Below are positions 1,777 to 22,734 of a DNA stretch of 39,184 nucleotides, in pieces. This DNA comes from a virus (Duplodnaviria > Heunggongvirae > Uroviricota > Caudoviricetes). The stretch lies in IMG/VR virus record IMGVR_UViG_2693429536_000016; one strand, written 5' to 3'. The notes under the pieces were generated by a model. That model searched no databases. It was not told the origin of the DNA and saw only the letters and a list, made by a program, of their open reading frames with translations. The translations under genes and the position numbers were made by a program. Numbering within the stretch: position 1 is the stretch's first letter; the number at the start of each line of letters is the position of its first letter.

Positions 1777-3372
1777 TTATGGCTGAGACTCTGGTTTAGC
1801 AATCTCGTTTATAAATTTCTTAGCTACAACAGTCTCATACTTTCTATAATCATCAAGATATTGAACATCTATATGATTTTTGTAGCGAGCATTAAATTTA
1901 TTTGCATCCCCTGTTTTATCATCTTTACGTTCATCCGTTGGTCTGAAAAATTTATGGTAGCGGCGGGGTGATACCCCCTCAAAATCACAAAATATTACTT
2001 TGGAAGATTCTTCGTTCTTTGTTATTGCATCATTATGCAGATCAAGAGCAAGGCTTTTATCAAATGGCTCTATATATACTACTTTTTTTATTCCAGATGC
2101 GACAATATGCCTTGCACAGTTGTGGCAGGGATAGGTTGTCGTAAAAAGAATTTTATCTTTAGTATCGCCGTTTTGTTTTCTAGCCATTGATGTAATGACG
2201 TCCATTTCAGCATGAATTGATCTGGAGTACTCCATTACACTTGATATTTTGCTGTCTTTGTAAATGCCTTCTGCAATATTATCTAATTTGTTTAGAAGTC
2301 GTGTTATATTAATATCGGCAACAGTTTGTCCTGCGGAAATACCTAATACACTTCTTACTTCGGTTGATAATATGCTTTTTATACGGTCTTTAATTTTTTG
2401 CTTGTTTGCATCATTATAACACTTACCACTTTTGTGAACGCATCGATGATCGTTATCAAAATCATCACTGCTATACAACCCGCCACCAGCTTTAGGTACG
2501 TCGTTCTTACCCACGGCAAGCAAATTCCCTTCATCATCAAACAGTGCAGCCCCTACTTGACGTGATAAACAAGCTGATTGTAATGATGTTGAAAAGGCAG
2601 CATACATACCTTTCTCGTTAAAAGTTGGTGTTAAACCATTTTTGCCATGAATAAGACCGAAAAACCGATCAATCTTCTTCTTTAATTCACTTTTTTGGCT
2701 GAAGTTATTTTTAATAAAAAAATCTGAATCAAGAATGGTTTCCCCGGTTCTTTGTCCATACGGATCAGAGGATTTATTATCAATATTAATAATTAAATGA
2801 AGGTCGTCCTTTGTCGATTCGTCAGCAATGAGATTCGTAATTCGGTAATCTAAATCGCGCAAAACTCCTAACAAATAGAAATTATGCTGATATATAACTC
2901 TGAATAACTCTATTTCTTCCGGCCTTTTGAATTGATCAATGATGAAGACAGTACCTTTATATTCATCATTATTATAATCAATATTCTTTTTCGCTGCTGC
3001 GATTGCTGCAATAGCAGCTTCTGCAAGCAACTCATTTTTTTCGTAATGTTTACGAAGTTTATTGGCAATATCCTGGAGTTTTAAATGTCTATTAACTTGT
3101 GTGCTTTCGGATACCTTCAGTGCTGCTGGCTCAAAATATAATGGGTCTTCCATAAGCGCACTTATGCGGATGTGTACAACATTATACCCCCATTCTTTGG
3201 ATATCTCTTCGATAATTTTGTTTATCGTTTTCATGCCACATCCAACATATCCACATAATCCAAGATAAATATCTTTTGATTGTCGTGAATTCACAATCTC
3301 AAGTGATGATGCCGATGTTGAGCCTTTTTTTTCATTCAGCTTTTGTGGAGTTTTTTTTGCTGCTTCAGCCAT
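1777..3372 (-). CDS. Two-domain protein: N-terminal P-loop-like nucleotide kinase-like domain fused to C-terminal cytidine/dCMP deaminase zinc-binding domain (AvcD / anti-phage dCTP-deaminase-like candidate)
   Basis: 531 aa; glycine-rich motif LGLCGYVGCGMKT near N-terminus; C-terminal HAEMDVI ... YPCHNCARHIVASGIKKVVYIEPF (HAE + PCxxC zinc-binding deaminase signature). Low-GC gene inserted between int and xis. Confidence 0.6.
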   Translation of the reverse strand: MAEAAKKTPQKLNEKKGSTSASSLEIVNSRQSKDIYLGLCGYVGCGMKTINKIIEEISKEWGYNVVHIRISALMEDPLYFEPAALKVSESTQVNRHLKLQDIANKLRKHYEKNELLAEAAIAAIAAAKKNIDYNNDEYKGTVFIIDQFKRPEEIELFRVIYQHNFYLLGVLRDLDYRITNLIADESTKDDLHLIINIDNKSSDPYGQRTGETILDSDFFIKNNFSQKSELKKKIDRFFGLIHGKNGLTPTFNEKGMYAAFSTSLQSACLSRQVGAALFDDEGNLLAVGKNDVPKAGGGLYSSDDFDNDHRCVHKSGKCYNDANKQKIKDRIKSILSTEVRSVLGISAGQTVADINITRLLNKLDNIAEGIYKDSKISSVMEYSRSIHAEMDVITSMARKQNGDTKDKILFTTTYPCHNCARHIVASGIKKVVYIEPFDKSLALDLHNDAITKNEESSKVIFCDFEGVSPRRYHKFFRPTDERKDDKTGDANKFNARYKNHIDVQYLDDYRKYETVVAKKFINEIAKPESQP

Positions 3373-7577: not shown

Positions 7578-8231
7578 TCAAAAATCCATTATTACTTGTT
7601 TGACAAGACCAACTATTCTGCAGTTCTCACCGCATTCAATAGTTTTATAGTTAGGATTTAGTGGGACGAGATACCTGTTCGGCCAGTCCTCAACAAATTT
7701 TTTGAGTGTCGCTTCTTGCCCACCATTGATATGGGCAACAACGATTTTTCCGTTAATACACTCTGTATCAATAATATCTGGCTCTACGATAACGATAGAA
7801 CCTTCTGGTATCGATGGTGAGCCGAGGGGATTGGTCATTGAATCACCACGGACCCGTAGTGCAAATGCCATTTCTGATACAAGGGCGGTAGTATAAACCC
7901 ACTCTTCAGCATCTTCTTTCCTGACACCAGGCTCCGTCATTGTCCATGAACCCGCCTGAACCCACGAGATGAGGGGGACTTTTTTAACTGCGAATATTTC
8001 AGGTTTTAGATTTATCTTTGGTTCAGGCGAGCCTTTTCCGCTAACAAGCCACAGAGGATCGCATTTAAGTGCGTTGGCTAGGGCTTGAAGGTTGGCTCCA
8101 TTTGGTTGGTAGTCGTCCTTTTCCCATCCAGTAACCGTGACACGGTTCACACCAGTCAAATCAGCCAGTGCTTGTTGTGTCAGGTTCAGTTCTTTTCGCC
8201 TTTGGCGAATACGATCACTCATGTTCATCAT
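7578..8231 (-). CDS. cI: CI-type prophage repressor (N-terminal XRE HTH + C-terminal LexA/S24-like autopeptidase domain)
   Basis: HTH ...LNLTQQALADLTGVNRVTVTGWE...; C-terminal ...VRGDSMTNP... and ...KIVVAHINGGQEATLKKF... consistent with S24 Ser/Lys dyad fold; divergent from cro and flanked by operators. Start is one of the Met codons at 8231/8228/8222. Confidence 0.85.
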   Translation of the reverse strand: MMNMSDRIRQRRKELNLTQQALADLTGVNRVTVTGWEKDDYQPNGANLQALANALKCDPLWLVSGKGSPEPKINLKPEIFAVKKVPLISWVQAGSWTMTEPGVRKEDAEEWVYTTALVSEMAFALRVRGDSMTNPLGSPSIPEGSIVIVEPDIIDTECINGKIVVAHINGGQEATLKKFVEDWPNRYLVPLNPNYKTIECGENCRIVGLVKQVIMDF

Positions 8232-8294
8232 GTAGGCAATCCTACCACATGCCAATGTAGGATTCTTGACATTGGTATGTTGGATATCCTACAT
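8230..8294 (+). promoter_or_regulatory. OR-type tripartite operator with rightward promoter (pR candidate)
   Basis: Three related 18-bp sites: 8230-8247 (ATGTAGGCAATCCTACCA), 8255-8272 (ATGTAGGATTCTTGACAT), 8277-8294 (ATGTTGGATATCCTACAT); TTGACA at 8266-8271 and CTACAT at 8289-8294 with 17-nt spacer; cro ATG at 8327. Confidence 0.55.
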
Positions 8295-11500: not shown

Positions 11501-11991
11501 TCATGAGTCTTTTGAATGAAGTTCAGAAATTCATTGAAGCCCATCCGGGGTGTACTTCCGGAGACATTGCGGATGCTTTTGCAGGTTACTCACGGCAGCG
11601 CGTTCTGCAGTCTGCAAGCAAGTTACGTCAGAGTGGGCGTGTGGCTCACCGTTGTGAAGGAGATACACGCAGACATTTCCCACGCCTGACTGAGAGAGCG
11701 CAGGAGCCGGAACCACAACCAGTTCGTGAAACCAGACCTGTGCGCAATTTCTATGTCGGCACTAACGATCCCCGGGTGATTTTGTGCCTGACCCGCCAGG
11801 CTGAAGAACTGGAGTCAAGGGGCTTATACCGTCGTGCTGCAACCGTGTGGATGGCGGCATTCCGTGAAAGCCACTCCCAGCCAGAACGAAACAATTTTCT
11901 GGCGCGTCGTGAGCGGTGCTTACGGAAAAGCAGCAAGCGCGCTGCATCAGGTGAAGAGTGGTATCTATCAGGGAATTACGTGGGGGCTTAA
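11497..11991 (+). CDS. Hypothetical protein (possibly PerC-like regulator; weak)
   Basis: 164-aa ORF (likely start ATG 11503); contains ...GLYRRAATVWMAAF... reminiscent of PerC-family activators; low certainty. Confidence 0.4.
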   Translation: MIMSLLNEVQKFIEAHPGCTSGDIADAFAGYSRQRVLQSASKLRQSGRVAHRCEGDTRRHFPRLTERAQEPEPQPVRETRPVRNFYVGTNDPRVILCLTRQAEELESRGLYRRAATVWMAAFRESHSQPERNNFLARRERCLRKSSKRAASGEEWYLSGNYVGA

Positions 11992-12644
11992 TGAGTAATA
12001 AATATTGCCAGGCGCTGGTGGAACTGCGGAACAAACCAGCCCATGAACTGAAGGAAGTGGGCGATCAGTGGCGCACGCCGGACAACATTTTCTGGGGAAT
12101 TAACACCCTGTTTGGCCCGTTTGTTCTGGATCTGTTCACTGATGGTGATAACGCCAAATGTGCCGCTTATTACACTGCGGAAGACAACGCGCTGGCGCAT
12201 GACTGGTCAGAACGTCTTGCGGAGCTTAAAGGTGCTGCCTTTGGTAATCCCCCGTACAGCCGCGCCAGTCAGCATGAGGGGCAATACATCACCGGCATGC
12301 GTTACATCATGAAACATGCCAGTGCTATGCGTGATAAAGGCGGGCGCTATGTTTTCCTGATCAAAGCTGCCACCAGCGAAGTGTGGTGGCCGGAAGATGC
12401 AGACCATATTGCTTTTATTCGCGGGCGTATTGGTTTTGAACTGCCAGCCTGGTTTATCCCGAAGGACGAGAAGCAGGTGCCGACAGGCGCTTTCTTCGCT
12501 GGTGCTATTGCTGTTTTCGACAAGACCTGGAAGGGACCGGCAATCAGCTACATCGGGCGCGATGAACTTGAGGCATGTGGTGAGGCGTTTCTGGCGCAGG
12601 TTCGCCAGCAGGCAGAAAAACTTGTCAGGGAGATGGCGGCATGA
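11991..12644 (+). CDS. Phage DNA N6-adenine methyltransferase (Dam-family, NPPY motif)
   Basis: Start in TAATG overlap with RBS TGGGGG; catalytic motif FGNPPYS; typical size for phage Dam-family enzymes. Confidence 0.75.
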   Translation: MSNKYCQALVELRNKPAHELKEVGDQWRTPDNIFWGINTLFGPFVLDLFTDGDNAKCAAYYTAEDNALAHDWSERLAELKGAAFGNPPYSRASQHEGQYITGMRYIMKHASAMRDKGGRYVFLIKAATSEVWWPEDADHIAFIRGRIGFELPAWFIPKDEKQVPTGAFFAGAIAVFDKTWKGPAISYIGRDELEACGEAFLAQVRQQAEKLVREMAA

Positions 12645-15179: not shown

Positions 15180-15196
15180 TTTTGTGGAGAAAGTTG

Positions 15197-15568
15197 ATGC
15201 GTGATATTCAAATGGTTCTTGAACGTTGGGGGGCATGGGTGGCAAATAATCACGAGGATGTGGAATGGTCATCTGTTGCTGCAGGTTTTAAGGGATTAAT
15301 TCCTTCGAAAGTAAAATCCCGCCCGCAATGTAGCGATGACGATGGCCTGATCATTAGCTCTGCGATGACAGTTCTTAAGAAAAAGGAACCGTATCAATAC
15401 GAATTACTGGAAATGTATTATGTGTATGGGGTTACATTACGGGCGTTGGGGGTAAAACTGGGGATATCACTTAATCAGGTTGTTATCAGACTGCAGAAAG
15501 CTGAAGGGTTTATTGACGGTTGTCTGGCAATGTTGGGGGTATCTTTAGAAATTGATTGTTACATATAG
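15197..15568 (+). CDS. Late-gene antiterminator Q-like protein
   Basis: RBS GGAG 8 nt upstream; located directly upstream of the late/lysis region; N-terminus MRDIQMVLERWGAW resembles Q proteins of 21/82-type lambdoids. Confidence 0.55.
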   Translation: MRDIQMVLERWGAWVANNHEDVEWSSVAAGFKGLIPSKVKSRPQCSDDDGLIISSAMTVLKKKEPYQYELLEMYYVYGVTLRALGVKLGISLNQVVIRLQKAEGFIDGCLAMLGVSLEIDCYI

Positions 15569-15643
15569 TAATAAATTCAATCAAAGTAAATAATCATATT
15601 TTATAATAACCTCCTGATGATACCTGTTCATTGGGAGGTTATT

Positions 15644-16261
15644 ATGGATAAAAATGTAGAGCATGTATTAGTTGATGCAATTGAAAATAAGCAATCTTTA
15701 ACAGTCGTTTACTTAGGAGGGAGCCAGCCCGGAACATTAAGGAATATTTCTCCGATTAGTATAAATGGGGATAAGTTGCGGGCAAGATGCCATAGTTCTG
15801 GAGCAGTAAAGGTTTTCAATCTTGGGAAAATACAGTTACCCAGTAACTCCTGCGCGGTATCTATGCACTATGGAGATTTAGAAGTTAAAGCTTATGAGAC
15901 GATGCAGAGCGTAAATGACAACTTTCATGCCCTTTATCCTGAAGGACGATGGGGTGTTGATTTTAATGAGCATCGCTTTGCTTTATTTGATTTTTTTAAA
16001 AACGGGAAACGAAAAAAAACGGCATTTATGGCAATTGAGTTCAGGGAAAGAGATGAAGAGAAAATAATAACAGGTGTAACAATTGATATTGGTATATCTG
16101 GAACAGTGATTTCTGAGAAATCCCGAATCCCAAAAAGACGACCATGGGTAGTGGTTGGTCCCGAACACGGAGAATACAGTACTTATTCAACTTTGGACAA
16201 GGCTGCTACAGCGTTTTTTGAGAGGCTTTCGTTGATAGCATCCGGCCTGGAAGATAATTGA
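15644..16261 (+). CDS. Low-GC moron gene of unknown function between Q and the lysis cassette
   Basis: 206-aa ORF with strong RBS GGGAGG; AT-rich relative to flanking phage genes; start codon and RBS lie within a 12-bp inverted repeat (15603-15614 / 15634-15645). Confidence 0.55.
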   Translation: MDKNVEHVLVDAIENKQSLTVVYLGGSQPGTLRNISPISINGDKLRARCHSSGAVKVFNLGKIQLPSNSCAVSMHYGDLEVKAYETMQSVNDNFHALYPEGRWGVDFNEHRFALFDFFKNGKRKKTAFMAIEFRERDEEKIITGVTIDIGISGTVISEKSRIPKRRPWVVVGPEHGEYSTYSTLDKAATAFFERLSLIASGLEDN

Positions 16262-16392
16262 TTTTATGTTTGGTATTCAGAGTTCGCCGTGCTTAAGAAA
16301 GTCAAGATTCTAAAAATACTGAATGAGCTACTTGTGTTATAACAAAAATGCTATTAGTGTGTTAAGAGTGGTTACTTCGCCACACAACTTAA

Positions 16393-16416
16393 ACCCGCCA
16401 CTGAGCGGGTTTTTTG
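16393..16416 (+). terminator. Rho-independent terminator (candidate tR' / moron terminator)
   Basis: ACCCGC cactga GCGGGT followed by TTTTTT. Confidence 0.6.
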
Positions 16417-16513
16417 TACCTGTAAACTTGGTGCAGTACAGTAAACACGCTGGTGGTCGTGAATACTGACTTTTTATCTTGCTGGCTTTTTAGACAAGAG
16501 TTATTGGTATGTC

Positions 16514-16741
16514 ATGTTAACCAGAAGGGAAAAAGACATGCTAAAACAGCAAGATATGACAGAAACCGCCGCCGCAGTCCTTCATTTCTTACCTGCTGAC
16601 AAGTGGGTAACGCCACGCATGATGACGAGAACTACCGGAGTAAGCGAAGCCCGGTGCCAGTTAATACTGACTCAGTTAGTTCTGGCGGGGCTGGCGAAGG
16701 ATAACGGCGGGTACGGGAATAAATTCAGACGCTGCCAGTAA
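16514..16741 (+). CDS. Small winged-helix-like DNA-binding protein (PapI/FaeA-like; tentative)
   Basis: 75-aa ORF (alternative start 16538 with AGGGA RBS); C-terminal ...TGVSEARCQLILTQLVLAGLAKDNGGYG... resembles small wHTH regulators. Confidence 0.35.
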   Translation: MLTRREKDMLKQQDMTETAAAVLHFLPADKWVTPRMMTRTTGVSEARCQLILTQLVLAGLAKDNGGYGNKFRRCQ

Positions 16742-16891
16742 TGGCGGTTTCCTGCTGTGAAAATGGGCGGCTGGTGGGTGTTGGTAGCACCTGCCAGCCA
16801 TTCGCTCATGCTTACTGGTCACAAGCGAACCACGGCCCACTGCTTTAGCGCAAAAGCAGAGTGAGCCTACCAGAGTTACGCTTACTGATCC

Positions 16892-17944
16892 ATGAAAAAT
16901 ACTGTAAAAATAAACAGTGTTGATTTAATCAACGCTGATTGCCTGCATTTTATTCAGTCCCTGCCTGATGATTCCATTGACCTGATTGTTACCGATCCGC
17001 CGTACTTCAAGGTGAAACCCAACGGTTGGGACAATCAGTGGAAAGGGGACGAAGATTACCTTAAGTGGCTGGACCACTGTCTGGCCCAGTTCTGGCGGGT
17101 GTTAAAACCTGCCGGAAGCCTTTATCTGTTCTGTGGGCATCGCCTGGCATCTGATATTGAGATCATGATGCGTGAACGTTTCAACGTGCTTAACCATATC
17201 ATCTGGGCGAAGCCGTCCGGACGTTGGAATGGGTGTAATAAAGAAAGTCTGCGCGCATATTTTCCTGCCACAGAGCGCGTTCTGTTTGCTGAACATTACC
17301 AGGGGCCATATCGCGGCAAAAGTGACGGCTATGCAGCAAAAGAAAGGGAACTCAAACAGCACATAATGGCACCGCTGATATCGTATTTCAGGGATGCTCG
17401 TGCCGAACTGGGTATAACGGCAAAACAAATTGCCGAAGCCACAGGTAAGAAAAATATGGTTTCCCACTGGTTTGGTGCCAGTCAGTGGCAGTTGCCGAAT
17501 GAGGCTGACTATCGGAAGTTACAGGCACTGTTTTCCCGTATAGCGGCAGAGAAGTTTCAGGAACAACAACTGGAACAACCACACCACCAGCTGGTGGCAT
17601 CTTATGATTCACTGAATCGCAAATATTCTGAATTGCTGGATGAGTTTAAATCTCTCCGGCGCTATTTCTCCGTATCAGTCTCCGTGCCTTATACCGATGT
17701 CTGGACGCATAAACCCGTTCAGTTCTACCCGGGTAAACATCCGTGCGAGAAACCGGCGGATATGCTCCGGCAAATAATCAATGCCAGTAGTCGCCCTGGT
17801 GATCTGGTTGCTGATTTCTTTATGGGATCCGGTTCCACAATAAAAGCAGCAATGGCGCTGGGGCGTCGGGCGTTAGGTGTTGAACTTGAGTCAGAGCGGT
17901 TTAATCAGACGGTGAAAGAGGTAAGTGAACTGGTGGGGAAATAA
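16892..17944 (+). CDS. Orphan DNA methyltransferase (N6-adenine/N4-cytosine, beta-class order: DPPY then FxGxG)
   Basis: Motif IV ...LIVTDPPYF... near N-terminus and SAM-binding motif ...FFMGSGSTIKAA... near C-terminus; no adjacent endonuclease gene evident. Confidence 0.85.
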   Translation: MKNTVKINSVDLINADCLHFIQSLPDDSIDLIVTDPPYFKVKPNGWDNQWKGDEDYLKWLDHCLAQFWRVLKPAGSLYLFCGHRLASDIEIMMRERFNVLNHIIWAKPSGRWNGCNKESLRAYFPATERVLFAEHYQGPYRGKSDGYAAKERELKQHIMAPLISYFRDARAELGITAKQIAEATGKKNMVSHWFGASQWQLPNEADYRKLQALFSRIAAEKFQEQQLEQPHHQLVASYDSLNRKYSELLDEFKSLRRYFSVSVSVPYTDVWTHKPVQFYPGKHPCEKPADMLRQIINASSRPGDLVADFFMGSGSTIKAAMALGRRALGVELESERFNQTVKEVSELVGK

Positions 17945-18020
17945 TTCTGGTGGCCACGTTGCGTGGCCTTTTTATTTCCAACACAGCACCCGCAAATATC
18001 GCGAGGTGAGAGATGACGAA

Positions 18021-20137: not shown

Positions 20138-20632
20138 ATGGATCGAGAGTTAAAAAATCTGACGCTTAATATCAGTCAACTGGCGGCACTGTCAGGTGTA
20201 CATCGCCAGACTGCTGCGGCAAGGCTGCAAAATCTACCCGTTGCAGGGGGGCATGAAAGCAACCTCAAGCTTTATCGGGTGGTTGATATTGTGTCGGCAT
20301 TTCTGGCATTACCACCGCCGGTTGCAGAAGGCGAAATGGACGCGCATGAGCGCAAAGCCTGGTATCAGTCTGAACGTGAGCGTCTTAAGTTCGAACAGGA
20401 AACGGCACAACTCATTCCGGCCAGTGATGTCAGACGGGAGTTTGCCATCTGGGCAAAAGCGGTCGTGCAGGTGCTGGAGACATTACCGGATATTCTTGAA
20501 CGTGACTGCGGTCTGCAGCCTGCCGCTGTGAGCCGTGTTCAGTCCATTATTGATGATCTGCGCGATCAGATAGCCCTGCGGGTGACTGAAGCAGGTGCGG
20601 ATGATGAGGAGGAATTACAGCAGGAGGAGTAA
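20138..20632 (+). CDS. Terminase small subunit (Nu1-like, N-terminal HTH)
   Basis: N-terminal ...LTLNISQLAALSGVHRQTAAARLQN... HTH like lambda Nu1; acidic C-terminus; immediately precedes large terminase with overlapping stop/start. Confidence 0.75.
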   Translation: MDRELKNLTLNISQLAALSGVHRQTAAARLQNLPVAGGHESNLKLYRVVDIVSAFLALPPPVAEGEMDAHERKAWYQSERERLKFEQETAQLIPASDVRREFAIWAKAVVQVLETLPDILERDCGLQPAAVSRVQSIIDDLRDQIALRVTEAGADDEEELQQEE

Positions 20633-22734
20633 TGCTGAATCAGGAAACCGCAAAGGCAGCACGAACCGATTCAGGTTATATCCTTCGCGCACCGAGACGA
20701 ATGCGGGTTGCTGATGCCGTTGCTCAGTATATGCGGGTGCCCATGGGGGCCGGGAACTCAGTCCCGTGGGATCCGCTGGTGGCACCGTATGTTATTGAGC
20801 CGATGAACTGCCTGGCCTCGCGTGAATACGACGCAGTGATATTTGTTGGCCCGGCACGAACCGGCAAGACTATCGGCCTGATTGACGGCTGGGTGATTTA
20901 CAACGTGATTTGCGATCCTGCTGATATGCTGATCATTCAGATGACGGAGGAAAAAGCCCGCGAACACTCCAAAAAACGACTCGCCAGAACGTTTCGCGTC
21001 AGCCCGGAAGTGGTCAGTCGCCTGAGTCCGAACAAAAATGACAACAACGTTTATGACAGAACATTCCTTGCTGGCAACTACCTGAAAATCGGCTGGCCGT
21101 CAGTCAATATCATGTCCTCATCAGATTATAAATGCGTCGCGCTGACGGATTATGACCGTTTTCCGGAAGATATTGATGGCGAGGGGGATGCCTTCTCTCT
21201 TGCCTCAAAACGTACCACCACATTTATGTCCAGCGGTATGACGTTGGTGGAGAGTTCCCCCGGCAGGGATGTGAAGGATGTGAAATGGCGACGGACTTCA
21301 CCGCATGAGGCTCCACCAACCACGGGGATCCTGTCGCTCTATAACCGTGGTGATCGCCGTCGCTGGTACTGGCCCTGTCCACACTGTGGTGAGTATTTTC
21401 AGCCCTGCGGCGATGTGGTTGCTGGTTTCCGTGATATTGCCGATCCCGTGCTGGCAAGTGAGGCGGCTTATATTCAGTGTCCTTCCTGTTCAGGACGGAT
21501 TATGCCTGAACACAAACGTGAGCTGAACGGACGTGGGGTCTGGTTGCGGGATGGTGAATCCATCAATGCGGATGGCAGTCGTTATGGTGATCCCCGACGC
21601 TCACGTATTGCGTCATTCTGGATGGAGGGTCCGGCAGCTGCTTACCAGACACTCTCGCAACTCGTTTACAAACTGCTTACTGCAGAACAGGAATACGAGA
21701 CAACCGGAAGTGAAGAAACACTCAAGACGGTTATCAATACCGACTGGGGATTACCTTATCTTCCCCGCGCCAGCATGGAGCAACGAAAAAGTGAACTGCT
21801 TGAGCAGCGGGCAGAGCCAGTTCCTTCCCGCAGTGTGCCGGATGGCGTTAATTTCCTTGTGGCGACAGTGGATGTGCAGGCGGGACGTCATCGCCGTTTT
21901 GTGGTTCAGGTAACGGGCTATGGCAGCCGTGGCGAACGCTGGATTATTGATCGTTACAACATCACGCAGTCATTGCGCGGTGACAGCGACGGGGAGAGCC
22001 AGCGAATTGATCCGGCCAGCTATCCGGAAGACTGGGATGTCCTGCTGACGGATGTTTTTCATAAAAGCTGGCCGCTGGCCTCCGATCCTTCTCAACAAAT
22101 GCGACTGATGGCAATGGCGGTGGACTCCGGCGGTGAAGACGGGGTCACTGATAATGCCTATAAATTCTGGCGTCGTTGCCGTCGTGATGGCCTTGGTAAA
22201 CGTATTTACCTGTTTAAGGGCGACAGCATCCGGCGCGCAAAACTGATCACCCGTACATTCCCTGATAACACCGGACGAACGGGCCGACGGGCGCAGGCCG
22301 CAGGTGATGTGCCGCTCTGGCTTCTTCAGACGGATGCACTGAAAGACCGGGTGAATAACGCGTTATGGCGTGACTCGCCAGGTCCCGGCTATGTGCATTT
22401 CCCTGACTGGCTGGGGAGCTGGTTTTACGACGAACTGACGTATGAAGAGCGGAGCAGTGACGGGAAATGGAGTAAGCCGGGTCGCGGTGCCAACGAAGCT
22501 TTTGACCTGATGGTGTATGCCGAGGCTCTGGTCATTCTGCATGGATACGAAAAGATCCGCTGGCCGGATGCACCGGAGTGGGCGAGCCGGGAAACCTGGC
22601 TGGAGTGTGTCCAGGACAGTACCGAACCGTCATCCTCACCGGAACCGGTATCCACGCCTGTTAAAAAACAAAAACGGAAGAAAACAGTAACTGACGATGT
22701 TAACCCCTGGCTGACTTCCGGAGGATGGTTATGA
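20632..22734 (+). CDS. Terminase large subunit (GpA family)
   Basis: 700 aa; Walker A VGPARTGKT; CPHCGEYFQ zinc-ribbon-like motif analogous to lambda gpA. Confidence 0.9.
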   Translation: MLNQETAKAARTDSGYILRAPRRMRVADAVAQYMRVPMGAGNSVPWDPLVAPYVIEPMNCLASREYDAVIFVGPARTGKTIGLIDGWVIYNVICDPADMLIIQMTEEKAREHSKKRLARTFRVSPEVVSRLSPNKNDNNVYDRTFLAGNYLKIGWPSVNIMSSSDYKCVALTDYDRFPEDIDGEGDAFSLASKRTTTFMSSGMTLVESSPGRDVKDVKWRRTSPHEAPPTTGILSLYNRGDRRRWYWPCPHCGEYFQPCGDVVAGFRDIADPVLASEAAYIQCPSCSGRIMPEHKRELNGRGVWLRDGESINADGSRYGDPRRSRIASFWMEGPAAAYQTLSQLVYKLLTAEQEYETTGSEETLKTVINTDWGLPYLPRASMEQRKSELLEQRAEPVPSRSVPDGVNFLVATVDVQAGRHRRFVVQVTGYGSRGERWIIDRYNITQSLRGDSDGESQRIDPASYPEDWDVLLTDVFHKSWPLASDPSQQMRLMAMAVDSGGEDGVTDNAYKFWRRCRRDGLGKRIYLFKGDSIRRAKLITRTFPDNTGRTGRRAQAAGDVPLWLLQTDALKDRVNNALWRDSPGPGYVHFPDWLGSWFYDELTYEERSSDGKWSKPGRGANEAFDLMVYAEALVILHGYEKIRWPDAPEWASRETWLECVQDSTEPSSSPEPVSTPVKKQKRKKTVTDDVNPWLTSGGWL

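Follow-up and report, generated by a model that had tools for sequence, protein, structure and literature searches.

We report a conserved structured nucleic acid element that stands directly upstream of M.EcoGII-family adenine methyltransferase genes in lambdoid, N15-like, VHML-like and Mu-like phages. It is described here in IMG/VR virus record IMGVR_UViG_2693429536_000016, a stretch of 39,184 nucleotides (hereafter the window) that represents a lambdoid prophage. In the window, the element lies within the 150 nt separating the end of a small open reading frame (ORF), which encodes a winged-helix protein, from the start of a methyltransferase gene. Neither the element nor the small ORF was found described in the literature searched, the coverage of which was incomplete. 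Within that literature the element is previously undescribed; the methyltransferase family was already known, and what is new is the structured element in the spacer. The element probably holds this toxic gene off until the lytic cycle is well advanced. A first-pass annotation made from the sequence alone had proposed that the small ORF and the methyltransferase form a methylation-dependent regulatory module, and had missed the element in the spacer, the most conserved non-coding feature of the cassette.

When the window was aligned with cassettes from Salmonella and E. coli, the 150-nt spacer proved better conserved than the small ORF. The same spacer pattern precedes methyltransferase homologues of only 48–64% protein identity in Serratia phage OS31, in an N15-like phage and in a VHML-like Vibrio phage, and the hairpins of these copies are altered in a compensatory way. 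Plain MAFFT and RNAalifold analysis of 26 divergent leaders gave only helix P1 and misaligned the hairpins; hence, a covariance model was seeded with five co-linear sequences. As for the loci, a first IMG/VR scan with the methyltransferase alignment returned near-identical loci only, and diversity was obtained with the Vibrio-phage homologue as query. The model gave 70 matches in 96 sources, one per locus, all of them in the coordinates of the methyltransferase strand and each immediately preceding the cistron that opens the methyltransferase operon. In the window, the sole strong, full-length match was that at 16759–16879 (E=7e-22), and a search with the mirrored model added a 31-nt partial match inside the same interval (E=0.15).

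The element is organized as a three-way junction (P1, TGGGC/GCCCA; P1a; P2) followed by hairpin P3 and the tail GAGCCTAYCA. Among 44 distinct sequences, 89% of the cells in the helices are standard pairs, compared to 30–42% when the partners are slid. Both sides have changed in 28 of the 34 pairs, and the covariation score is 0.46 against 0.02–0.08 in the slid controls; these numbers are somewhat inflated because the covariation alignment was fitted to the model, but the margin is still large. P1a, P2 and P3 are well supported by covariation. A motif-first check was also performed, in which a loose degenerate DNA pattern was scanned over species-representative genomes. Of the 120 pattern matches, 17 passed the model, all with E<=2e-13; the remaining 103, which are chance matches, gave nothing at E<=0.01. 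In 15 of these 17 motif-first loci, an ORF of the M.EcoGII family (58–83% identical to that of the window) begins exactly 12 nt past the end of the model. Together, these data demonstrate that the element exists, that it is structured and that it is tightly linked to methyltransferases of the M.EcoGII family. Neither 16759–16879 nor its homologues in 13 loci matched Rfam 15 on either strand at E<=1. A weak STnc130 match at 16383–16519 (minus strand, E=0.09) had no counterpart in the five related loci that were searched and was treated as chance.

The constraint does not stop at the start codon. In 27 de-replicated lineages, a single codon accounts for 88–100% of the lineages at each of codons 2–10 of the methyltransferase gene (codon 3 excepted, AAT 59%), compared to about 33–77% single-codon use at most later codons. 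These codons contain an inverted repeat, ACTGT (16901–16905) and ACAGT (16914–16918). Judged by codon comparison, such a constraint on synonymous sites shows that the element reaches into the ORF, with a total extent of about 165 nt, from about -135 to +30 of the start codon.

In order to evaluate the strand on which the element acts, base pairing was compared between both orientations. The columns that pair contain 102 A.C/C.A mismatches against 32 G.U/U.G pairs, with the excess located mainly in P1a and P2, and A.C mismatches become G.U pairs on the opposite strand. For 36 of 43 sequences, the minus strand gives the more stable consensus structure, and the minimum free energy is lower on that strand in 37 of 43 (mean -47.9 versus -40.8 kcal/mol). 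Moreover, with a mirrored model built from the same five seeds, all sequences outside the seed score better than with the plus-strand model, the gain being 0.1 to 10.9 bits. This asymmetry is the signature expected of selection on an RNA transcribed opposite the methyltransferase gene, and suggests that the element may be a cis-antisense RNA. A reading of the element as a single-stranded DNA promoter (Frpo-like) was set aside, the stems being devoid of -35/-10 boxes; moreover, phages of these kinds are not known to infect in single-stranded DNA form.

The protein encoded downstream of the element matches Pfam N6_N4_Mtase (PF01555) over residues 29–341 with E=1.3e-42. Its motif IV, TDPPYF (residues 34–39), precedes motif I, FMGSGST (310–316), which is the beta-class order that the first-pass annotation had read in it. 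The same annotation rightly called the enzyme an orphan, since no nuclease gene is present in the cassette or adjoining it. Aligned end-to-end with M.EcoGII (reference sequence from the supplement of PMC11551740), it has 283 of 349 identical residues (81%), 91% positives and 2 gaps, the central four-helix target-recognition region included. By this similarity, the enzyme is a member of the M.EcoGII family. M.EcoGI and M.EcoGII are non-specific adenine methyltransferases encoded by prophages of E. coli O104:H4 C227-11; M.EcoGII methylates adenine in any context, its constitutive expression is harmful and it is silent in its lysogen (PMC5778455). In two O111 Shiga toxin-producing E. coli strains that carry homologues, methylomes obtained by single-molecule real-time sequencing showed no extra methylation motif (PMC6602927). 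By extension from its characterized homologue, the enzyme of the window would likewise methylate adenines non-specifically, and the flanking terminators and late-operon position of its gene suggest that it would be silent in the lysogen.

The window has the layout of a lambdoid prophage, with an integrase gene (386–1624), a CI-like repressor gene (7578–8255, minus strand), a nin region, Q (15182–15568) and a terminase gene (20632–22734). The cassette occupies a late-operon position between Q and the lysis genes, which begin at 17925, with holin and lysozyme genes downstream of the methyltransferase. It is flanked on both sides by intrinsic terminators, with hairpins of -12 kcal/mol followed by U6 on the left and of -12.5 kcal/mol followed by U5 on the right (Table 1). 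Terminators are annotated at sites homologous to both borders in SfV and Ayreon, and the similarity of the window to other phages begins about at the first one. The order of small ORF, spacer of about 150 nt and methyltransferase recurs in SfV, Ayreon, mEp460, cdtI, Stx2 phages and Salmonella, including Stx2a phage relatives 93% identical to M.EcoGII. The cassette was found in 1467 of 5426 complete E. coli genomes (about 27%). It stands behind differing Q types and beside varied cargo genes; in Stx2 phages, it is directly upstream of tRNA genes and stx2AB. No tRNA or tmRNA was detected within the window, spacer included. The linkage between the small ORF and the methyltransferase, on which the first-pass annotation had based its regulatory module, is hence non-random. 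The methylation-dependent switch that was part of the same proposal does not agree with the non-specific family to which the enzyme belongs.

Table 1. Features of the methyltransferase cassette and its borders in the window.
Feature	Position	Strand	Basis or detail
Left intrinsic terminator, tR'-like; left border of the cassette	16392..16418	+	AAACCCGC-loop-GCGGGTTT, then T run
Conserved block upstream of the small ORF	16478..16516	+	CTTGCTGG-N9-CAAGAGTTATTGGTATGTCA
Small winged-helix protein gene, 67 aa (alternative ATG at 16514, 75 aa)	16538..16741	+	PHROG 331, E=4.6e-26
Hairpin over the stop codon of the small ORF, weak terminator-like	16731..16748	+	Fold of -11.9 kcal/mol
Conserved structured element, about 120 nt	16759..16879	- (favoured by base-pair statistics)	Covariance model; candidate cis-antisense RNA
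Methyltransferase translation-initiation region and codons 1–10	16880..16921	.	No clear Shine-Dalgarno sequence; inverted repeat
M.EcoGII-family beta-class N6-adenine DNA methyltransferase, 350 aa	16892..17944	+	Pfam match and identity to M.EcoGII
Right intrinsic terminator, after the methyltransferase gene and before the holin gene; right border of the cassette	17952..17968	+	Terminator scan match

Degraded copies of the methyltransferase gene were also encountered. Many Stx2a phages (e.g. Stx2-converting phage 86, PA30 and P14437) have only the last 34 or so codons of it (residues 315–348, 82–85% identical), so that what stands upstream of stx2 is apparently a deletion remnant of the cassette. 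In one IMG/VR locus (L134, methyltransferase start at about 1184), the loss of one base in the A run of codons 2–3 (ATGAAAATACTG) puts the methyltransferase out of frame, which possibly reflects either a pseudogene or a slippery homopolymer.

We think it rather probable that the whole is a late-operon hypermethylation cassette of a lambdoid prophage, that is, a late anti-restriction methylase held under several silencing layers. In phage lambda, only polymerase modified by Q reads genes at such positions, and it does so late in lytic growth. Following this paradigm and the reported silence of M.EcoGI and M.EcoGII in lysogens, transcription of the methyltransferase gene would depend on RNA polymerase that Q has made resistant to terminators, and would be confined to the late lytic phase. 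The enzyme would then methylate adenines throughout the progeny DNA, which would weaken restriction in the next host. An extra control layer is to be expected in the cassette because such an enzyme harms the growing cell, and the element may provide this further silencing around the methyltransferase start codon. As a structured cis-antisense RNA, it would pair with the leader and the initiation region of the methyltransferase mRNA and block translation until late transcripts are in excess. The winged-helix protein would be an accessory part, most likely one that modulates the element-based control or the methyltransferase itself. A bolder version of this proposal is more tentative, and we hold it possible but somewhat doubtful. 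It states that a new and widespread cis-antisense RNA family, extending to about +30 of the ORF, controls the translation of non-specific N6-methyladenine methyltransferases of temperate phages, and that the winged-helix protein is a FinO/Rop-like cofactor or a sensor of hypermethylated nucleic acid. The resulting three-part silencing module would be common to lambdoid, N15-like and Mu-like phages, and about one E. coli genome in four would contain it.

Several observations weigh against this scheme. P1 and a helix that competes with it (GGCUC/GGGCC) consist of invariant bases and have essentially no covariation evidence. The window's own sequence folds slightly better on the plus strand (-56.9 versus -53.6 kcal/mol). 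Neither a convincing sigma-70 promoter nor a canonical terminator for a minus-strand RNA was found by scan and inspection, which leaves the base-pair asymmetry as the sole basis of the antisense model. The allele of the window is 19% diverged from M.EcoGII, the enzyme from which its non-specificity is deduced. Finally, many loci keep the element and the methyltransferase without the winged-helix protein, and the variable parts of this protein swap between cassettes whose methyltransferases are 99% identical. Because it is often missing and its parts are exchanged, the protein cannot be indispensable for this control, and its linkage to the methyltransferase could be a matter of position.

The best surviving alternative is that the element is the sense-strand 5' leader of the methyltransferase mRNA, which would act as a riboswitch-like or protein-binding gate by sequestering and freeing the initiation region. 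We consider it unlikely, though it deserves serious attention. Its ligand could be S-adenosylmethionine or S-adenosylhomocysteine, the winged-helix protein acting like Mu Com, or the methyltransferase itself in an autogenous repression, as M.EcoGII binds and methylates RNA. The fixed 12-nt distance between the element and the start codon, together with the lack of a clear Shine-Dalgarno sequence before the ATG, is in keeping with such a leader. So are the alternative pairings of the region. The 3' half of P2 is complementary to the segment just before the ATG, and pairs better with its cognate than with non-cognate partners (-9.1 versus -7.2 kcal/mol, Wilcoxon p=7e-5); in addition, several invariant segments can pair in mutually exclusive ways. 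The slightly better plus-strand fold of the window points in the same direction, as does the fact that, in other homologues, the gene is preceded by a structured leader that is clearly of the sense strand, or is accompanied by a Com-like activator. However, the complementarity between P2 and the initiation region is equally valid on the other strand. Moreover, the threefold excess of A.C over G.U, the steadier minus strand in 36 of 43 sequences and the better score of the minus model for all non-seed sequences form an asymmetry opposite to that expected of selection on a plus-strand RNA. On these comparative grounds, the antisense reading is placed somewhat ahead of the sense leader.

Other arrangements were observed upstream of other methyltransferase homologues. 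In a group of Mu-like loci (L099-L107, L109, L114, L142), a Com-like zinc-finger ORF with four cysteines (MTKLIELRCPKCGAKLCEF...) is located between the element and the methyltransferase gene and is followed by a hairpin over a GGAGG ribosome-binding site; most of these loci also have an 82–98-aa winged-helix-like ORF 150–230 nt upstream of the element. A different conserved leader, about 150 nt upstream of the methyltransferase homologue, was found in L108, L110-L113, L118, L119, L122, L123, L125, L126, L129-L131 and L135. It reads GCCUUGAGUACCUGAGACCCA-hairpin-UGGAGAGGAAGCA, then a second hairpin, then AUUCAAGGC, which pairs to the 5' end before a GGAG ribosome-binding site. With 30 G.U against 2 A.C and a better fold on the plus strand, this leader looks like a sense-strand, riboswitch-like element; those of L110 and L118 had no Rfam match. 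A fourth upstream pattern (a terminator, then CCTGCAATAxGCCCGCCGGGCG...) precedes more distant homologues in L141, L144, L151, L167 and L170, and L141 has two tRNA genes just downstream of the methyltransferase. Considering the Com-like ORFs and the second, unrelated structured leader, the M.EcoGII-type family seems to attract post-transcriptional control generally.

The small ORF is a real gene. Database searching gave 150 homologues of its product, which come from Escherichia, Salmonella, Pantoea, Kosakonia and Klebsiella, and the ratio of nonsynonymous to synonymous substitution rates (0.04–0.17 in six pairs) indicates purifying selection. The 67-aa start is likely to be used rather than the 75-aa one, because it has a GAAGGG Shine-Dalgarno sequence 8 nt upstream, is the RefSeq start and agrees with the common N-terminus of the homologues, MLKQQDMTETA. 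An AlphaFold (AF2) model with a pLDDT (predicted local distance difference test) value of 87 shows a minimal winged helix of H1-H2-H3-beta-beta topology (helices 4–17, 26–33 and 37–49; strands 53–55 and 63–65), which bears out the winged-helix assignment of the first-pass annotation. In the fold search, Zalpha domains head the 50 matches listed, with template-modelling scores of 0.82–0.84, followed by TrmBL2, IclR, MarR and the RNA-binding winged helix of SelB. Against Pfam, the family gave weak generic winged-helix matches (TrmB, MarR_2, DprA_WH). The isoelectric point (pI) of the homologues ranges from 5.1 to 9.6, and since charge is not kept, a DNA-binding role cannot be assumed.

The small-protein family is a mosaic: its members all have the same N-terminus and the same helix 3 (RCQLILTQL), but differ in helices 1-2 and in the wing, which behave as exchangeable alleles. 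Compared with one related locus (L003), the window has a 99% identical methyltransferase protein and 94% identical flanking DNA. In the small gene, the patches 16568–16650 and 16696–16741 have only 45–49% nucleotide identity, against 87–98% in the rest of the frame. Recombinants between allele types exist (P0052-P0057). This patchiness suggests cassette-like exchange or diversifying selection on the protein surface.

As to its distribution, N15-like phages encode a homologous 75–78-aa protein in the equivalent position (hhalign probability 94%, E=1e-7). The 82–98-aa ORF of Mu-like phages is a weaker candidate relative, with an hhalign probability of 67% against the N15-like profile and no significant match to the lambdoid profile. 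The linkage to the methyltransferase is kept even where the small protein is down to about 50% identity. Among 80 diverse IMG/VR loci, the lambdoid-type profile matched in 4, and about 16 more have, by inspection, an N15-like or Mu-like winged-helix-type ORF upstream of the element. A winged-helix gene is present upstream in 11 of the 17 motif-first loci and absent from 6.

These data bear on a second alternative, that the winged-helix protein is independent of the methylase, a separate late cargo (e.g. anti-defence or host-modulating) co-inherited only because the region from Q to the lysis genes is an insertion hot spot common to both. This alternative is improbable, but has several observations on its side: the exchange of variable modules between cassettes with 99% identical methyltransferases, a hypervariable surface around an invariant helix as in arms-race proteins, and the absence of the protein from 6 of 17 motif-first loci and from most diverse viral loci. 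In some relatives, terminators even separate the small gene from the methyltransferase gene; at L012 and in N15-like loci, clear terminators with a hairpin and a T run stand where the window has the 16731–16748 hairpin. On the other side, homologues stand directly upstream of the element and the methyltransferase in lambdoid and N15-like phages with differing surroundings, possibly related proteins do so in Mu-like phages, and in the loci whose context was read the protein was never seen away from an M.EcoGII-family methyltransferase.

It is more doubtful still that the winged-helix protein acts as a transcriptional controller in the style of C proteins, binding the conserved block at 16478–16516 to set the timing or level of the methyltransferase. 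A small regulator-like gene placed directly upstream of a methylase would suit this role, as would an invariant helix 3 and the presence of the block before the small-gene start in all divergent cassettes. Its family consensus, CTTGCTG-N9-11-CAGAGTTAY-N-TGTRTGTCAC, is seen in 12 divergent cassettes (the window and 11 other loci). The changes in the block are paired and RNA-like, however, rather than confined to fixed half-sites: the CTNN...NNAG positions vary as CTTG/CAAG, CTGG/CCAG and CTGT/ACAG. Neither a sigma-70 consensus match nor an Rfam family match was found there. Besides, C proteins are Xre-type helix-turn-helix (HTH) proteins that control a nuclease gene, which this cassette does not have, and the wide pI range and the acidic helix 3 of the N15-like homologues also speak against this role.

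Least credible is the idea, raised in the first-pass annotation, that the small protein resembles PapI/FaeA regulators and together with the methylase forms a heritable, phase-variable switch in the lysogen. The winged-helix fold and the conserved linkage with an adenine methylase invited it. None of 30 family members matched Pfam FaeA (PF04703) at E<=1, PapI did not appear when the whole set of PDB sequences was searched by profile at E<=10, and it was also absent from the 50 fold matches listed. A Pap-type switch also needs a sequence-specific enzyme that is active in the growing cell, so that no Pap-style patterns would be expected with a partner 81% identical to the non-specific, lysogen-silent M.EcoGII, whose properties are extended to it by family membership. 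The insulation of the cassette by terminators within the late operon and the variable charge of the small protein argue in the same sense, and we regard such a switch as very improbable.

Several other genes of the prophage were noticed in the course of this work. The next gene upstream of the small ORF, between Q and the first terminator, is a 214-aa ORF (15617–16261, plus strand) that matches PHROG 8498 (function unassigned) and has a weak WYL-like N-terminus (E about 0.01). Its product could be made in lysogens should the late promoter be located immediately behind Q, since the ORF would then stand ahead of the first terminator. The same slot contains other cargo in related prophages, e.g. 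a reverse-strand AAA ATPase gene or two reverse-strand ORFs. A second adenine methyltransferase of the Dam family (PF05869, E=1e-45) is encoded in the nin region (11958–12644, plus strand), so that the prophage has an early/middle methylase of site-specific type in addition to the late M.EcoGII-type one. Beside the integrase, a 531-aa deaminase-domain protein (1777–3372, minus strand) matches the PADLOC dCTP deaminase defence model with E=1e-164 and is probably a prophage-borne anti-phage gene.

M.EcoGII is widely used in the footprinting of chromatin and RNA. Its first description did not settle by what means prophages silence it, and a covarying element and a conserved small protein are now concrete parts with which to address this question. 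If the element is an antisense RNA or a leader gate, it represents a new RNA family. Should it indeed be a gate, control over broad DNA-modification enzymes at the post-transcriptional level would have arisen convergently in several phage lineages, in the manner of com-mom in Mu. The analysis also corrects the epigenetic-switch reading of the cassette, which was attractive but unsupported.

Compared to known systems, the closest relatives of the window enzyme are M.EcoGII and M.EcoGI, which are like it in beta-class layout, length (349 versus 350 aa), prophage location and 81% identity. The published work on them concerns the enzyme, without the upstream winged-helix gene or the structured element (PMC5778455). 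PapI/FaeA, which works with Dam and Lrp, resembles the cassette in having a small winged-helix protein near an adenine methylase; the two proteins share no detectable family similarity, and the partner of the former is a housekeeping GATC methylase, whereas that of the latter is from a non-specific, lysogen-silent family. The C proteins of restriction-modification systems differ in fold (HTH_3 instead of a winged helix) and in being associated with an endonuclease gene, none being present in or next to the cassette.

The most instructive parallels are with systems of post-transcriptional control. Mu com-mom and the Mu-like com-methyltransferase operons (Hia5, Hin1523, Nma1821) were compared from PMC3299994. 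As in Mu com-mom, a toxic gene for broad adenine modification is found at the end of the late genes, with a small protein gene just upstream and, in our reading, a dedicated post-transcriptional control that holds it off until the late phase. Unlike Mu, the window has no zinc-finger Com; its small protein, with two cysteines and a winged-helix fold, is not a four-cysteine zinc finger and is encoded upstream of the element, not downstream. Mom is, moreover, an unrelated enzyme, and the hairpin to which Com binds is far smaller than the element of the window, for which the opposite strand is the better fit. The proposed antisense mechanism recalls FinP/FinO acting on traJ, as well as hok/Sok, IS10 RNA-OUT, P22 sar and lambda OOP, in which a structured RNA with covarying stem-loops lies opposite the 5' leader and initiation region of a gene that has to be kept off, and a small protein gene is nearby. 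In the window, the antisense RNA is only a candidate, since no promoter or terminator was found for the minus strand; the element has no sequence or Rfam similarity to these RNAs, and the winged-helix protein is unrelated to FinO/ProQ or Rop. With neither a zinc finger nor a protein of FinO/ProQ type, and matching no RNA family, the cassette is a member of neither com-mom nor FinOP, yet it is their logic that it most resembles.

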